Source: Octopus vulgaris
Lineage: Eukaryota
Assembly (NCBI GenBank): GCA_951406725.2
Contig: OX597833.1
Coordinates: 59,396,001-59,460,000 of the forward strand
DNA: 64,000 nt
Reading direction: 5' to 3'
Shown here: piece after piece, positions 14,266 to 49,987 of the stretch
Position numbering within the stretch: position 1 is the stretch's first letter
How the letters are laid out: each line of letters opens with the position of its first letter
Notes under the pieces: generated by a model
Databases searched by the model: none
Told to the model about the DNA's origin: nothing
The model's input: only the letters and a program-made list of their open reading frames with translations
Position numbers and translations under genes: made by a program

Positions 14266-14436
14266 GTATTCACATCAGTTTTCGTGTTAGAGGCTCTTCT
14301 GAAGATTGTTGCATTTAATAAACAGTATTTCAAAAGTGGTTGGAATGTATTTGATTTGGTTGTTGTTGTTGCGAGCTTAATTGATTTAGGAGTGGAGGGG
14401 CTTAAAGGTGTATCTGTATTCCGGTCTTTTCGACTG
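14266..14436 (+). CDS. Voltage-gated sodium/cation channel alpha subunit (Nav2/DSC1-like), internal exon: domain II S2-S4
   Basis: Polypyrimidine tract plus tttcag acceptor; CTG|gtaagt donor; 171 nt, phase 0-0. Encodes VFTSVFVLEALLKIVAFNKQYFKSGWNVFDLVVVVASLIDLGVEGLKGVSVFRSFRL (S2 E..LK, S3 WNVFD, start of the S4 arginine repeat). Confidence 0.97.
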
Positions 14437-15932: not shown

Positions 15933-16126
15933 CTACGCGTTTTCCGTTTAGCCCAGTCATGGACAACAATGAGGTTGCTGCTGTGTATAATTCTTAATAC
16001 ACTCGGCTCGTTGGGATATTTGACCATAATACTTATTATTATCATCTATATCTTTGCGGTTACGGGATTACAATTATTTCATACTGACTACACACCTGAC
16101 AAATTCAAAGGAGAACCTGTTCCCAG
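15933..16126 (+). CDS. Nav2-like channel exon: domain II S4 end, S4-S5 linker, S5 (missed by the ORF track)
   Basis: tttcag acceptor, CAG|gtaaat donor; 194 nt, phase 0-2. Encodes LRVFRLAQSWTTMRLLLCIILNTLGSLGYLTIILIIIIYIFAVTGLQLFHTDYTPDKFKGEPVP(R). AQSWTTM is Nav2-like; Nav1 channels have AKSWPTL. Confidence 0.97.
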
Positions 16127-22960: not shown

Positions 22961-23108
22961 ATGGAACTTTAATGATTTCCTCCATTCGTTTATGATGGTC
23001 TTTCGAATTTTATGTGGAGAATGGATCGAACCCATGTATGATTGTATGCGTGCTTGTAATGGTCTTTGTTTCCTTATCTTCATACCAGTTACCGTGTTTG
23101 GCAAAACA
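22961..23108 (+). CDS. Nav2-like channel exon: domain II pore loop and S6 start (missed by the ORF track)
   Basis: tttatttcag acceptor, ACA|gtaagt donor; 148 nt, phase 2-0. Encodes (R)WNFNDFLHSFMMVFRILCGEWIEPMYDCMRACNGLCFLIFIPVTVFGKT, with the domain II filter Glu in LCGEW; WIEP is typical of Nav2. Confidence 0.97.
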
Positions 23109-26069: not shown

Positions 26070-26247
26070 CTTTTCTTTCTGTTCATCGGTTTGGTCCTGG
26101 GCGCCTTTGGTTCTGATAGTGTTGAACAAGAAGTTGAACCATCCAGTTTCGCATTAGCCTGGGAAAGGATAAGAGCTCTTTTAGACAAAAGGAAAGGAAA
26201 CATCTGTCCAACTGATGACAATCTTAGGGATGATGGTCAAGACGAAG
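26070..26247 (+). CDS. Nav2-like channel exon: domain II S6 end and start of the II-III cytoplasmic loop
   Basis: tttttctag acceptor, GAAG|gtatga donor; 178 nt, phase 0-1. Encodes LFFLFIGLVLGAFGSDSVEQEVEPSSFALAWERIRALLDKRKGNICPTDDNLRDDGQDE, in frame with the previous exon. Confidence 0.92.
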
Positions 26248-41286: not shown

Positions 41287-43064
41287 TACATAAATACATG
41301 TGTAGATAGATAGGCAGATGTGTCTATATATATGGTAATTAAGAGCTCAATTGATATACATCATGTTATAACAAAACAATTTAACTTCAAACTGAAAAAT
41401 TACTCAATACTTTTTTGCAGAGTACATGTTTTTTAAACTTATACAAGAGATGTGACAATGACTTTGAGGTTTTAGTCTGCTAATAAGCATGTGTGTGTGT
41501 GTGTGCACACGCGCACATGTGTACGTGTGCTTGTGTGTGTGTAGTTAGAAGAGATGACTACGATTGTGTAGGCTTGTTTCCTAGGTTACTAAGACTGATG
41601 TAGTTGATATTTTCTGCTTGAGCTTCTGTTTATAAAAATCAGATCAGGTATTCCATAGGAGTTCAGTTTTGGGAAAGAAGTATTTTGTGCTAAGTTGGAA
41701 GGTGAGATACAAATACAGATACATTCTTAGAAATATAATGGAAGCAACATCAATTTGGAGTACACTGATCAGATAAAAGTCACCCAGTGCATGGACATTC
41801 AATATAACAATATAACTTATTTTTTTAACCGATGGAAACTCTATAAAACAGAAAATAGATATATAGTTGCAGTCACAGGCTTTGTTCTAAACATCAGGTT
41901 CATCTTCTCACAACATGCAAACTTCTTTAAATTCCTGAATTTTATTGTACAATTTTTGCCTACAGCAACCACTGCCAGTTCCCTCGGATTCTGCTTTTTC
42001 AATTACATTTTTTTTTTACAGAATCATTTACCATTGAACCTGGAAATGAGTTTGGGTTAGTTTGGAGAAGTGAGCTAAATATTAAAAACAACTGGAGGAA
42101 AATAGCTGTTTGAAAAACTTGATAAATTTTTTGTTTAATTTGTCCATGAATGTTGTTCTAAATACAATCGGGAATGTTAGAATTTTGGAAGATGGCTTAC
42201 CATTGTATCTAGCAAATGAATTTACAGCAGCTGCGAGATATTTTGAATCTTTAATCAAAATTTATAGCTCCCTTCTGTGAATGAGCAGATGAAAGAGGTT
42301 GCTGGTTGTGTATCCCTGTTCTTCACATACACAAAAAAAATACCACATAAAAATATATTCATGGTTAGTTATATGGATTTTTATTTGATGTGCATACACA
42401 TTAGCAATATAAAAATCTGCTCATAACATTATAATGTTAAATAGAGAAATCAAATGAAGGTAGTGATTTAATCTACTGCAGATTTTTTTATGAAATATTT
42501 AAACTGTTCTACAAAAGTAGATGCTGCTGATATTTTCTTGTTTCTATATTGTTCTATGAAATCATTGAAGTAATGTACAGTTCTTTGACCATAATTTGTG
42601 TGAAGAAAAATTGTTAATTATTGTTGCCAATAACAAAATTTATGAGCTTTTTTTCTCCTTTCTTTCTTTTTCTTTTGCTAAACTATATTGTATAATTTTC
42701 TGTGCTGTGTGAGTTCCTTTCCTGGAAACTCCCCATGTGATGTGCTATTGGCTCAAATGCTTTTCTCATTTCCTCGTAGATTTAATAAGTGGAATATAAA
42801 GTTGTACCACTTTCCATTAATTACACATTTTTCTTTCCTTCTTAACTAATTACAATGCTAGAGTAGACATATCGATGCTATTGTACTAGGTGAGTTTGAG
42901 TTCTCTGTCTCAATGAAACAGTTATTGTTATTTCTTTTGAAAGTTTACAAATTTTCTTTTTGCAATTTTGTAAATTAAAATAATCTCATGTGTCTTGTTC
43001 AAAAATGGTTAACAGTTATGTGATCTGTATTGATTTCTTTATTTGTTACTCCTTAAACAAGCAG

Positions 43065-45569
43065 CGGACCTAGATGTATTGCAGCGCAATGTCAACCATG
43101 CAAGCTCAATTCGAGAGGGCCAGTATGGTGATGTATCATTGTCTACAACAAAGGGCAAAAATGGGAAACAGGCAAACAGCAAATGTTTCAAACAGTCCAA
43201 AACTGGCAAACTGTATTATTCTCTACCAGATGTCGTGGCTATTACAAAGAAACATCAATCAGATATTGGAACCTCCCCGTCTATGCCCAACATAAGAAAC
43301 CTTGGAAAAGATAGATCCAGTTCTCTCCGAAGAAAGAGTTCCCAAGCCAGTACACAGTCACATGAAAAAAGATTAACAGGCTCATCAAAAAGTCTCGCAA
43401 CTTTCTCGATCAAGCGTCAAGTTGATGGGACTCTACAGCTGGAAAATGTCAGTAACAAGATTTCAGAACAATGTAAGGGTGAAAAGTCATTTTATTCAGT
43501 CCCAAATGTTGAAAAACTCGCAAGCGAGGTACAACAAGTGGGTGGGAAAGTAACGACTTCACTCGTTGACATTAGAAACAGTAAATTCTCGCTGTTGACT
43601 GATTTTCCCCGGTTTGATTCCAATCTGAATACAGATAAAACTGATCAAACACAAAGCAGTAAATGTGTGACCTTTTCTAAGTTTTCGACTGAGCAGGACA
43701 TCAAAAGTTCGTGGGCATCTCTTTCATCGGGGACAAAAGTACTCCCTAAAGCAACCTCTGTGGAACTGAAGCATGGTGTGCTGCCCAACTCACAAGTCTA
43801 CGTTCAGTGTACAAAAGATAAAAAATCCGTGCCAGAGAAGTGTGAAAAACTCTCCAATTCACTTCTTGACCAGATTACCGATTACTGGAAACCACCTGCT
43901 ATATTCAAACAGTTGTTCAACCCACCTATCTTTATAGAAAGTTCCACAGATCCTATACCCTTACAAGAAAACTGCAGGATTCCAAACCTACCTGAGATTG
44001 TTGAAAGTCTAAAGAAACCTCAACGCAAAAAATCTAAGAAATTAGGAAGCTCCTATGCCATTGTAGACCAAGCATTGAAGGACATGAAGTACAGGAATTT
44101 GTTGAACACTTATACTGATGAAGATCTTGCAGTCCTTCCTTCCCTTTCGAATCAGTCCGTACAAGGAGAAAGAACCTTACTTTCGTCTGTTGATGATGTT
44201 AATCTCAGCAACATGGAAAATATTTATGAAGAAACAACTATAACAAACACATATGGCACGCCCGTTGACCTTCTAGCAACCCAGCAAGAAAAATTCACAT
44301 TTCAACAGCCCTTTGGAAAGCCATCACAGCTGATAGTCGTTGAATGTCCCAAAAATGATTCTGTTTCTAATGTTGATTCCGGTCTCATTGTAGATCCATC
44401 TAGGTTCAACCAAGAAAAATCAAAATCTACCGATTTTCATATCAAATTTGATAGAGCTGAGAAAACACCCTCAGTATTTCGATCCCTTCCAACATCTTCT
44501 TTAAACAATAATTACAATGTACATGTAGACAACAGCCCAGATCCAGACCAACAACGGCGAATTTCTTTACCCCACTGCAACATCCGAGATGTGTCTGGGA
44601 CAAATGTGGATACTGACAGCAAAATTTTGCAGCAGCAACAATTATTACAGCAACATCTCCAAAGATATTTGGAGCCATCAAGCTCAGGCAGTATTGTTGA
44701 AGTAGCAAGTGATGAAGATCTCAAATCTAATGACAAATCACCTAATTTCCCTTATATTGATGTTGAAGCTACTGTTAGACAATCTTATGAAAATCAGAAT
44801 CAACCCCATCAACAGCCAAGGTTTTCGACAAGGTCTACATATTATGAGAGCTATGAAGAAGTGAAATACCTCACGTCACGGAAACTATCGTGCTTACCCC
44901 CCGTTTCAGAAGTTGAAAGTGATGAAATATCTACAGTGTCCGAAATAAGCAATTCTTCTACACAACAAACTACATCTGCCATCGATATGGTAAAACCCAC
45001 TTTGAAAATCTTTACCTCTGCTGAACCTCTGCCTACTACAAAAACGTCCAGAGAAGGATTGACAAAAAACATGTCCAGAAAGAAAATACATCAATCAACC
45101 AGAAGTATGTCAACTTTTTTGGCCGAAACAGCACCCAATAAATGCCCTCCAGCCTATTATGTCCGTAGTACTGGCAATCTGCAAAACAAGGCCACCTTTG
45201 CAGACGTTGTACTTGCTAGTACGAAAATGCTTCGTCATCAGAAACCAGGATTATCCTCAAGCTGTATTGATATGGGGATGGTTGTTAGTAATCGAATATA
45301 TGATCAGCAGAGAGAGTTTGGTGCACCTAAAACAGCCATTTCTTTATCAGATATGAAATACATTGGAAGCAGGACAAGTCAATCAAGCCCAAGTAATAGA
45401 TCAAATTCAATGGCTGATGTGGGTTCGGTGTGCAACAAGTTATCAAAAAGCGAAGGCAGAAGATATTCATATTCGATGTCAGATGTAAAGAATCTGAAGA
45501 ATTCAATGTCTGGAGGCAACAAGGGGTCAACCAAGTCGCTAAGTAGGATTGGCTCTGCCATCATGAAAG
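43065..45569 (+). CDS. Giant internal coding exon (~835 aa, Ser/Thr/Lys/Gln-rich, probably disordered), probably part of the channel II-III loop
   Basis: Stop-free 848-codon frame with non-repetitive composition in AT-rich DNA. AAG|gtaagc donor at 45569/45570 (phase 1). In-frame phase-1 acceptors give exon starts at 43062 (aag), 43065 (cag) or 43074 (tag), after a T-rich tract. Phase matches the phase-1 donor at 26247. Assignment to the channel is an inference. Confidence 0.75.
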
Positions 45570-47561
45570 GTAAGCCTTTTTTTGTATAATTTTAATCTTT
45601 TATTGAAAAAGTTGAAAGTTAATGATTCATTGTTAAAAATACAAACCCTTTTAGACCTCTCTATCTTTGATCTTTCTACTGTTATCTTAATGTTAAAAGC
45701 ACTTGACTACTTCACTGAATTAAGATTATAATAAAACTTTACTCCGTTTCCAATGTTCAATAAATTCTATTGATTATACACAGAACACTTGCTTTATTGT
45801 AAGTATTACAGCAATAGGAGGTGATATGTTGTATGTTGGCAAAATATTATTGGAATATTATTACTTTTTAATTATTTACATGTGCTTAAAATTACCTCCA
45901 TTCTCTTATTTAGTCTTCTCCCTCTCTTCTCTTTCTCTCTCTCTCTCTTTTACTCTGTTTATCTCTCTCTCTCTCTTTCACTCTTTCTCTCCCTCTTGTC
46001 CATCTTTAAGAAGGTAAAAGGAGTTTATAATTTCTACATAGTTTTTTTTTTTTTGCTTTTTCAGTTGGATTTGCATGTCAGCCTGAGAGATCTTTAAAAA
46101 TATGTATACCTATCTATCTATATCTATAATAAAAATACTCAGCTATGCATAAGTTACAAAGAACAAACAGTGGTTATGAGGGGTTGAGATAAATGATAAG
46201 GATGGTGATGATGATGATGACAATAGTAATAATAATAATAATAATAATAATAGTTTCTTGACACTAGGTCATAAATTTGTGGGTTGGGGGCTAGTTGATT
46301 AAATTGACCTTGGTACTTGATTTGTACTTTATCAACCCTGGAAGTATGAAAGGCAAAGTTAGCCTTGGTGGGATTTGAACTCAATAATGTAAAGAGCCAG
46401 AACAAATATCCCAAAATATTTTGCGTGACACACTAAAAATTCTGCCAATCCACCACCCTTAATAATATCTGCTAAGGCCGCAGAAATATTTTGATGAACA
46501 TACCTGGACACAATTTTTGTTTGCTTTTTTTTTAAATATTGATAGTGTAACTTGCAAATTGTGCTTTAGAACTATATTTATGTATGTATTTAATTCCATG
46601 TTAGACTCTTATTTCTCAATGCCATCATATATCAAAGTCTTCTACAGCTTGTAGATGAGAAACTGTTATGTTGCTATTTAAACTTTTTGTTTCAATCATC
46701 CGCATAGTTTTCCTAATATTCCTAGCTTGATGTTAGACAATAGCACAGATACAAAGCTACATAATAAAACCTAATCATTCCTCATGCTTTCACTTTGTAT
46801 TTTATGCAATGAAGGCATTGCTTCTCTTTGGAACTTGCTTCCTCTTTTAGAACTTACTTCCTCTTATCTTTTTGTACTACTTATATTTAACTAGAATTTT
46901 TGCCTCATAAAACCTAAAAGCATTTTTAGGTTATAGATCTGACTCTATCTTTTCTTTCATTGATAAATTATGTTGTTTTCTTTTAAAATCTCACTGTACA
47001 TTTTTAAAGTAATACTCCCAAACAACAATAAAAATAATTATTATAATTACATCAATCAATTCCATCTTTTGAATAGGAACGGGATTTTCAGTTCAGTCTT
47101 TATAAGTGTCGGTTAAGAGATCACTATTGTTCGCCATTCAATTTTTGCAATTTTTTCTGAGACATCTTATTTAATGGATTTTCAATTAATATTTTTTAAG
47201 TAAACTAAAATATAATTTTGCTTGACTCAAAATATCTAACCATTACAAGCTATTTATGCAGTTATAGGAATAGATTATACTTTAGCTTTTTCAAAATATC
47301 CCATTCTTAATTGTTACATTGTTAGGAATATATCATATTCCTACTACTGTAGAAAGTCCGATTTCATTTTAGTAATCTAGTTTATCAACCTACAAGATTT
47401 TACTGACTGGTATTTACTTGAGATAATAGACAAACCTTTTTCATATAATATAATCTATCTTTAGTGTTTGGCCAATACAAGGTAATCAGTGCTTGATGGT
47501 CTTCAATTATTCTCAAACAGTACACTTGAGAGTAAACACCTTGTCTCACCAAACTCTTCAC

Positions 47562-47623
<62 letters not shown>

Positions 47624-47953
47624 TGCACTTGGACATCAACCATATCAATGTCACTAATCTGGGAGGGCCTACAAAAATCATAGGTGTTTCTCCTCTATCT
47701 GTACTGATTAGTATTATTAATTTTTAAAAAATGAAAGAATGTCCACAAAATATATTCTTTTCAGCTACAGGCCACCATTTTGACTTATTTTGCTTAGTGT
47801 TATATTATAGTAAATTGGTCTCATTTATTCAAATTTTTTTTTTTTTAAGTTAAGGAAATAATTTAGTCTGTTCTTTATTTTCACATTTTTATGTAACCTC
47901 TTGCTTCCTCTATTCTCTAAGGAGTTTTTTTTTTCTTTCATTCAACCTTGTTC

Positions 47954-48076
47954 TCTTTTACTCTCTTTTACTCTTTTACTTGTTTCAGTCATTTGACTGC
48001 GGCCATGCTGGAGCACCGCCTTTAATCGAGCAATTCGATCCCGGGACTTATTCTTTTGTAAGCCCAGTACTTATTC
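47954..48076 (-). mobile_element. 5'-truncated family A SINE between ~240-bp direct repeats
   Basis: Only the 3' 123 bp of the SINE are present; flanks 47715-47953 and 48077-48324 are near-identical. Confidence 0.88.
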
Positions 48077-49987
48077 TATTAATTTTTAAAAAATGAAAGA
48101 ATTTCCACAAAATATATTCTTTTCAGCTACAGGCCACCTACATACCATTTTGACTTATTTTGCTTAGTGTTATATTATAGTAAATTGGTCTCATTTATTC
48201 AACTTTTTTTTTTAAGTTAAGGAAATAATTTAGTCTGTTCTTTATTTTCACATTTTTATGTAACCTCTTGCTTCCTCTATTCTCTAAGGAGTTTTTTTTT
48301 TTTTTCTTTCATTCAAACTTGTTCAGTAGTTTTTCTTTGCAAATTAACACATTCTTTATCATATTAACTAAGAAAGTCAGAATTTGTAGGAGTGAAAACT
48401 TTTACTAGCAAAAATAAGCAGATAATTTCAAATTTGTAGCATTATTTCATTTGTTTGCACATTTGTCATACTTTAATCAATAAATTAATGAAACCATCGT
48501 TTCATTAAGTCAAAATTTGCAAACACTTTCAACTTGAACATGATATGATATTTCAAAGAAAAGAAAAGCAAGTAAAACAAACCTTAATCATCAACATTGT
48601 TGTCTTTGTAGATGATGAAGGAAATAATGAGAATAAGGGTCACTTCATCAAATTTGTATAACAAAATATTCAAAAGTCATTTCTAGTATTTTCATTCGTA
48701 CTCATGAAACAATATAAGAAATAATATCACTGTGTCGTAGAAGGTAATAACAATGCAGATATAATTTTAATTATCAGTATTAACTACTACAAAGATATTG
48801 AAATGTTACTTTCAAAATATTTGATTAGTCTTGATATTTCAAGAGACACATATAAATTGTATGTCCATTCACAAGGATTTCACATGCCAACAGAATGGAC
48901 ATGGACATACAGTTTATATATCTTACTTTTCCTTTAAAGTCTTTGTAAAGGAGTTTTAACATAAAATATCAAGATTAATTAGATATTTCTAAAGTAACAT
49001 TTCAATATCTTAGCTATTGCTATTATCAATATTTAATATCATATCTACATTGTTATCACCCTCTATAACTCGTTAATTTTCTGCATATTCTGCAATGCTT
49101 CAAGCCAACTACAACATTCTTCTAAAAAAAGATATTAGTAATCATTGAACAAGTGTAGAACCTTTTATATTTTCTGTGTAATTGTGTTATGTAGGTTTTA
49201 GCTAATTTGTGTGGTGGTGACTATTTAGCGGTAGAGAACTCTTTTTTATATATATATATATTTAGGTTTCCTTTAGCAAAACAAAAAGATTTAACATAGT
49301 TGTGTTGTCCCATGTGTATAGAAAAACAATCTTCTAAATAGATTTCATAGAAATTTCTTTCTATTTCTATACATGGTTTCAACATTTTACATGGTTTGCA
49401 ATGTTTTCTATTAATATTATGAAAACTAATTTGACTATTTCTATTTTTATGACTGTTTTAAAGTACAGTATGCTGCTAATATCCTGAAGTTGGGTGACTT
49501 TGAACGAAGATTGTGAAATGTTTATTATGAACCCTACAAGTTGAAATGAATTGATAAATTCTTTAAAATGATTGGAGATAAGACAGAAATGGAAATAGTC
49601 AGAAAGTTTCATAATACCAAAACTGTATTGTTAGTAAAGTTGAGTAGCTTAGAGTAGAAGTCATGTCTATAATAGACGGTTGCTAGTAGAAATTAGTTAC
49701 TGAGACCTTTTGTAACAATCATACTATTGTGAAATATTTCAGTATAATTTGTTTTTGTCTTTACATCCAATACTGGAAGCCAATTACGATGGTGGCATAT
49801 TCATATAGACATATGACACAAGGGTGAGTTGAAAGCTTTTAATTTCCAAATGGGAAAATATGACACCAATATCAGAACTTCTATTCCAGTTAACACCTTT
49901 CATAAAACAGTTTTACCATTCCATGAATTATAACAATGCAACAATGTTTTTGTGTGTTTTTCTTCTTGCAACCAAACATCTGTATTT

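Follow-up and report, generated by a model that had tools for sequence, protein, structure and literature searches.

The DNA analysed here, referred to as the window, is a 64,000-nucleotide stretch of the Octopus vulgaris genome (assembly GCA_951406725.2, contig OX597833.1, positions 59,396,001 to 59,460,000 of the forward strand). It carries part of a gene that we assign, on sequence features, to the Nav2 (DSC1/BSC1-type) channels, including a giant exon in the cytoplasmic loop between domains II and III (II-III loop). The five exons in the window, all on the plus strand, correspond letter for letter to the O. vulgaris protein CAI9737895.1 (P0003), and this protein is therefore not independent support. 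Upstream of the giant exon lie two domain II exons of 171 nt (14266..14436, P0003 residues 463-519, with ag/gt ends) and 194 nt (15933..16126, residues 520-584), a domain II pore exon of 148 nt (22961..23108, residues 584-633) that contributes the E of the DEEA selectivity filter, and an exon of 178 nt (26070..26247) that encodes the last part of IIS6 and the first part of the II-III loop and terminates in a phase-1 donor, AAG/gtatga. All four match P0003 exactly, and their lengths agree with the 148-194 nt given in an earlier model-made note on this DNA (the initial annotation).

The assignment to Nav2 was based on several features. Ion-transport matches flank the window on both sides on the plus strand of the same contig (C20). 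P0003 contains four Ion_trans domains (Pfam PF00520 in four stretches), the residues D, E, E and A in its four pore loops, and an MFL motif in the III-IV linker. Among the matches listed, nearly all of the nearest relatives after the octopod cluster are named 'protein 60E', a ranking by similarity and not by a tree, and a second, Nav1-like gene on C11 is only ~45-55% identical to the C20 gene. Insect Nav2 orthologues are Ca2+-permeable channels with slow currents (PMC4969797), and Ca2+ permeation is supported for DEEA channels by honeybee CaV4 (PMC4969797, PMC10983803); by analogy, the octopus channel is likely to be Ca2+-permeable as well. Cephalopod Nav2 is described by Whitelaw 2020 (PMC7656900 supplement) as a channel without an assigned function that is expressed in the brain at levels like those of Nav1.

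The giant exon lies within a stop-free frame of 851 codons on the plus strand (43034-45589). The other five frames across the exon contain 30-70 stops apiece, and 835 open codons would arise by chance at the local base composition with a probability of ~1e-23. The exon (43062/43065..45569) is symmetric, with phase 1 at both ends, and encodes 835-836 residues (~93 kDa). At its 5' end, tandem acceptors (43059..43073) serve three same-phase starts at 43062, 43065 and 43074, giving exon lengths of 2508, 2505 and 2496 nt, each a multiple of three. Among six deposited octopod proteins described below (P0002-P0007), two match the acceptor at 43062 and are one residue longer (P0002 and P0004), four match that at 43065 (P0003 and P0005-P0007), and none uses that at 43074. 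At its 3' end, the exon has a near-consensus phase-1 donor, AAG/gtaagc (45567..45575), and reading through the donor at 45569 reaches a stop at 45587-45589. A stricter search found the exon as a single copy in the O. vulgaris genome.

The intron between 26247 and the giant exon measures 16,814 bases. The next exon was located beyond the window, 36,427 bases 3' of the donor at 45569 (L002:7997-8058; start at C20:59477997), and it begins with a phase-1 acceptor. Since the upstream donor, both ends of the giant exon and the downstream acceptor share the same phase, both inclusion and skipping keep the frame. The open frame of ~835 codons, the phases, the 16.8-kb gap and the preservation of the frame had all been proposed in the initial annotation and were confirmed here, with the downstream acceptor as a new element; to call the exon a cassette is an interpretation that goes beyond the sequence. 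In the O. sinensis protein P0004, one extra Glu is present at the junction 3' of the giant exon (45569 to L002:7997). The acceptor at L002:7997 has no tandem site, and the residue could stem from a 3-nt microexon or from a difference between species.

Conservation and loop size

A database search with the exon retrieved the Octopus bimaculoides protein XP_014771226.1 at 98% identity. Its cluster has seven members: one is a Logan fragment, and the other six are long channel proteins, which come from five species. All six long octopod Nav2 proteins (XP_014771226.1, CAI9737895.1, XP_036366885.1, QPI69429.1, QPI69430.1 and QPI69432.1) include the giant exon, spliced in frame between its neighbouring channel exons and continuing through to domain III, and it is on these six deposited proteins that exon inclusion rests. 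The placement in the II-III loop of a Nav2 channel suggested by the initial annotation was upheld, while the novelty of the sequence had been overstated, the exon being already present in RefSeq and GenBank proteins. Three of the six (from Abdopus and two Hapalochlaena) are GenBank entries to which no genome contig is linked, which suggests that they are probably cDNA-derived. The QPI entries probably stem from Geffeney et al. 2019 (Toxicon).

Compared with P0003, the exon copies of O. bimaculoides, Abdopus and Hapalochlaena were 95.7-97.7% identical, without any stop or frameshift, whereas the rest of the protein was 98.6-99.5% identical; the exon identity was 100% for P0003 and P0004. The split between Hapalochlaena and O. 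bimaculoides is dated at ~59 million years (PMC7656900). The exon changed 3-7 times faster among octopods than the rest of the protein. Only one homolog, P0128, was found among 1.84 billion representative sequences (828 aa, 50% identical, E 3e-167). It is encoded in a single open frame on a 516-kb European Nucleotide Archive (ENA) contig and is identical to the octopus exon at 392 of 835 positions (47-50% overall). P0128 ends where the giant exon ends and continues with the same first intron residues as the octopus read-through, which points to the same donor. Identity between the two is patchy (15-40 of 50 residues per block) and peaks at residues 251-350 (43838..44137; 40/50 and 37/50 identical), a block that also holds an LxxIxE motif at 43988-44005. 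Metagenome scans for the DNA of P0128 gave no match. The initial annotation had named orthologous sequence full of stops as grounds for rejecting its proposal, and the intact octopod copies together with the open frame of P0128 speak to the contrary. The exon is old, conserved and already annotated. It is not discussed in the titles and abstracts listed for the openly searchable literature on cephalopod Nav2, squid DSC1 and Hapalochlaena channels, although subscription papers may mention a long loop, and the accessible text of PMC5295241 and PMC9698786 does not treat the II-III loop.

With the exon, the II-III loop of octopods reaches 983 residues. We compared it with non-octopod Nav2 proteins taken from the best 120 of 426 matches; in one of these 119 the limits of the loop could not be placed, and leaving it out gave 118 insect loops, which include isoforms and close kin and are not independent. 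Most of them were short on this measure (median 271 residues), nine were at least 800 residues long, and the longest, among flies and mosquitoes, had 966. The uncommonness of the octopus loop had therefore been overstated in the initial annotation. Its statement that insect DSC1/BSC1 channels have long, alternatively spliced II-III loops is supported by the literature, which describes for DSC1 orthologues in insects a longer II-III linker that contains alternative exons (PMC3805903). The insect channels (NaCP60E, CaV4) share with octopus Nav2 the DEEA filter, the MFL motif in the III-IV linker and the long II-III linker (PMC3805903, PMC4969797). However, the insect alternative exons covered here measure 15 and 69 bp, unlike the 2.5-kb octopus exon. 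Comparison of the exon with the 118 insect loops by phmmer detected no likeness (best E 0.088), so the expansions look independent. The octopus exon is a variation on a known theme of long, spliced Nav2 II-III loops.

Inclusion and skipping

Indirect evidence on skipping came from squid. The Loligo bleekeri channel D14525/BAA03398 has 1,522 residues (Hill et al. 2008, Table S1; PMC2597720). Over domain I, 25 of 334 residues differ by eye between the squid and octopus proteins, which identifies BAA03398 as the orthologue. After a shared anchor, 1,122 residues remain in the squid protein; the corresponding part of the six octopod proteins is 1,958-1,961 residues long, a length that falls to 1,123-1,125 once the exon is taken out. 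The squid deficit of 836-839 residues thus equals the length of the exon (835-836 residues), and squid either skips the exon or lacks it. The rate of change of the exon, scaled to the squid distance, predicts ~58-79% identity, and P0128 stands at 47-50%. This places P0128 at the squid distance or beyond, from which we infer that the exon probably arose no later than the split between squid and octopus, which favours skipping. We conclude that skipping probably occurs somewhere in coleoids, and for octopus itself the sequence comparisons tip the balance slightly towards it, although most octopus transcripts are probably of the long form.

Several points weigh against skipping in octopus. The squid and octopus proteins were compared over the first 400 of 1,522 residues, and the squid channel to which the initial annotation ascribed a short II-III loop is indeed short by the length of the exon, with the position of its gap deduced from that length. 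Because P0128 is tied to no species, squid may be without the exon altogether. In octopods, every one of the six long proteins contains it, and the RefSeq names of O. bimaculoides and O. sinensis carry no isoform label. A search at near-full length, among the best 120 of 426 proteins, returned no short octopod or other cephalopod form, the octopod cluster being the only cephalopods there, and none of 160 candidates in a search at shorter length was a short cephalopod form. These points would fit an exon that is constitutive in octopus, with one long channel, and a squid short form due to exon loss or to squid-only skipping. The near-consensus donor (AAG/gtaag) is consistent with this alternative, and phase symmetry alone is common by chance. 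However, the near-length search missed the known squid protein too, which makes its blanks weak, and annotation and assembly tend to retain one long form. The agreement between the squid deficit and the exon length, and the old exon suggested by P0128, also argue against it, and we consider constitutive inclusion the less likely account, though one to be taken seriously.

Two further alternatives fare worse. The exon might sometimes be terminal: transcripts that ran through the donor as far as the stop at 45587-45589 and were polyadenylated in the intron would encode a two-domain truncated channel with a long tail. AATAAA hexamers are present at 45730 and 45759, and two-domain truncated products have been described for insect DSC1 orthologues (PMC3805903). 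However, such hexamers are expected in an intron of ~70% AT, all six long proteins splice on to domain III, the donor is kept in P0128, and the intron residues in P0008 and P0128 look like the work of a gene caller on unspliced DNA, so that a terminal exon is very improbable. The frame could also belong to a gene of its own nested in the channel gene, to the remains of a transposon or to an error of annotation, the first of which the initial annotation had named as a way in which its proposal could fail. This would agree with the lack of any Pfam family and of any PDB or Atlas match of weight. It is contradicted by the in-frame junctions with both neighbouring channel exons that six proteins, representing five species, display, by the single copy in the O. 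vulgaris genome and by the boundaries conserved in P0128, and we regard it as virtually excluded.

Short motifs in the encoded insert

The insert consists of 15% Ser and 71% disorder-promoting residues and has no hydrophobic segment. No Pfam family was found for the exon or for P0128. PDB searches gave no match for the region of an acidic motif described below and two chance matches for the conserved block (E 0.27 and 0.56), and the best ESM Atlas scores (0.81 and 0.79) are leads only. AlphaFold returned a mean pLDDT of 30.5 on three sequences, a value that fits disorder and is uninformative at such alignment depth. From its composition, the insert is predicted to be disordered.

Within the insert, the pattern S-[LMVI]-[PSAV]-[DN]-[VIML] occurs eight times (0.17 expected; maximum of three in 5,000 shuffles). 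P0128 has six occurrences at aligned sites (0.14 expected), and the 118 insect loops have none (3.8 expected in total), so that repeats of this serine motif set the octopus exon apart from the insect loops. Four S-hydrophobic-x-D/N-hydrophobic motifs (43220, 43280, 43496 and 43559) form an N-terminal cluster of predicted phosphorylation or binding sites (43220..43573), three of whose aligned sites in P0128 fit the pattern while the fourth retains S-L-x-D-I. Three S-hydrophobic-x-D-hydrophobic motifs (45341, 45407 and 45473) form a C-terminal cluster (45341..45487), and all three are kept in P0128.

Between these clusters lies a conserved acidic motif, L-x-P-V-x-E-hydrophobic-E-S-D-E (44894..44926), which fits the docking consensus of the phosphatase PP2A-B56 and also resembles the chordate ankyrin anchor (PMC10970375, PMC6259924). 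The B56 consensus is [LMFI]xx[ILV]xE, and acidic residues at positions 7-9 raise affinity (PMC10970375). It is matched at two aligned sites in the octopus exon (P0001) and P0128, one of them followed by acidic residues, and a stricter acidic form was found in one of the 118 insect loops. Unlike the preferred B56 motif, the acidic site has V, not I, at position 4. Both B56 genes of the O. vulgaris genome are multi-exon.

It should be noted that several observations count against a functional reading of these motifs. The serine pattern was written after the octopus sequence had been seen, and P0128 is a homolog and not an independent sample. Motifs of the LxxIxE type are short and common, with 1.3-1.5 expected by chance, and the P0128 count of four was reached in 199 of 3,000 shuffles. 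Sites shared with P0128 were not significantly less variable among octopods than the other sites (22/392 versus 37/443, p = 0.14). The serine motif resembles the C-terminal half of AMPK/MARK-type sites, which would make it a candidate kinase site.

A rival reading of the acidic motif is a convergent ankyrin anchor, which would tether the long isoform to a giant-ankyrin scaffold and cluster it in a domain like the axon initial segment, leaving the short isoform untethered. In chordates, an ankyrin anchor lies in the II-III loop, and it was absent from the other invertebrate Nav genes of one survey (PMC2597720); its consensus is V/A-P-I/L-A-x-x-E-S/D-D (PMC6259924). The octopus motif shares the location and the P-hydrophobic-A/S-x-x-E-S-D core of the chordate Nav1 ankyrin-G anchor, which has its own exon in protochordates (PMC2597720). 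Scored against the Ciona 9-mer, the octopus site reached 26 (equalled in 21 of 5,000 shuffles; next best site 13) and the P0128 site 32 (0 of 5,000), and the best of the 118 insect loops reached 23. P0128 matches six of the seven consensus positions (4 of 3,000 shuffles). Furthermore, the survey listed the 1,522-residue squid protein, apparently without the exon, and so probably could not see the site (PMC2597720). Molluscs have giant ankyrins (PMC5135030), and long frames lie downstream at the O. vulgaris ankyrin locus. However, the octopus site matches four of seven positions, a number readily reached by chance (1,909 of 3,000 shuffles), and lies 329 residues from IIIS1, compared with 97 ± 3 in chordates (PMC2597720), and on these two counts it falls outside the anchor class in octopus. 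The chordate anchor also differs in belonging to the Nav1 clade and to a short exon. B56 docking suits both the conserved L before the P and an E at one of the variable positions, neither of which belongs to the ankyrin consensus. From the sequence, PP2A-B56 docking explains the acidic site at least as well as an ankyrin anchor and accounts for more of the conserved residues, and we prefer it; a convergent ankyrin anchor appears improbable. Slightly more improbable still is the broader proposal that coleoids convergently evolved an ankyrin-anchor-like II-III motif on an optional giant exon of Nav2, that splicing decides clustering on a giant-ankyrin scaffold, and that the chordate-only rule missed the motif through the short cephalopod form. 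No anchor-like 9-mer scoring above 20 was found in the three plus-strand frames of L008-L010 in the C11 Nav1-like gene.

Our preferred reading, which we hold with somewhat better than even confidence, is that a conserved, frame-preserving cassette exon of 835 codons in the cytoplasmic II-III loop of Nav2 acts as a motif-based regulatory docking arm. Inclusion would give a 269-kDa channel with a predicted disordered arm, and skipping a channel ~93 kDa smaller that resembles the cloned squid form. The arm would act through short linear motifs and not through a fold, its two serine clusters being predicted kinase or phospho-binding sites and its two LxxI/VxE motifs predicted PP2A-B56 docking sites. 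The splice choice may then switch phosphorylation-dependent trafficking, anchoring or modulation on or off and leave the pore and the inactivation gate untouched.

A single exon, amounting to 35% of the protein, separates the octopod database proteins from the squid clone, and functional work must choose which form to express. If skipping occurs, a regulatory arm of 93 kDa is gained or lost through a single splicing decision. Binding of the acidic motif to PP2A-B56 would provide a direct handle on Nav2 regulation, and binding to ankyrin would mean revising the idea that only chordates evolved the anchoring of channels by way of the II-III loop. The giant-exon ankyrins (AnkG 480 kDa, Drosophila Ank2-L/XL) likewise use one very long exon to produce a giant isoform of a neuronal protein (PMC5135030). 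However, this is an analogy in which no homology was found; the octopus exon is 2.5 kb long versus 7.8 kb, and in octopus the isoform switching is inferred.

Other observations on the ankyrin locus and channel genes

On C4 (~156.70-156.72 Mb), open frames of 1,366 and 346 codons (L038:5901-9998 and L039:2-1039) and of at least 2,418 codons (L040:2747-10000, continuing beyond the end of the locus) lie downstream of a canonical ankyrin ZU5 exon (L017) and are likely giant-ankyrin exons. The O. vulgaris ankyrin exons that were seen encode one repeat each.

In the Nav2 gene, the last exon (L005:1519-2607) is ~1.1 kb long, and the end of P0003 is unlike that of the other five proteins, probably a difference between gene models. 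Upstream of the window (L006), in the I-II loop, the stretch after domain I is 15 residues longer in P0002 and six residues longer in the squid entry than in the other octopod proteins, length differences that hint at a small alternative segment; the domain I pore region of P0002 looks mis-predicted. In the Abdopus protein P0005, G replaces the domain III filter E, which could reflect RNA editing or a sequencing error. In the intron downstream of the giant exon (47900-48320), a stretch of ~200 bases is repeated ~380 bases later, by eye a local duplication.

No giant frame comparable to the Nav2 exon was found in the C11 Nav1-like gene within the 60 kb read, and its introns contain retroelement-like frames (L007-L009). 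Ion_trans matches spanning a whole domain in one open frame were present on C4, C6, C8, C14, C15, C18 and C25, and these are probably potassium-channel genes with few introns.

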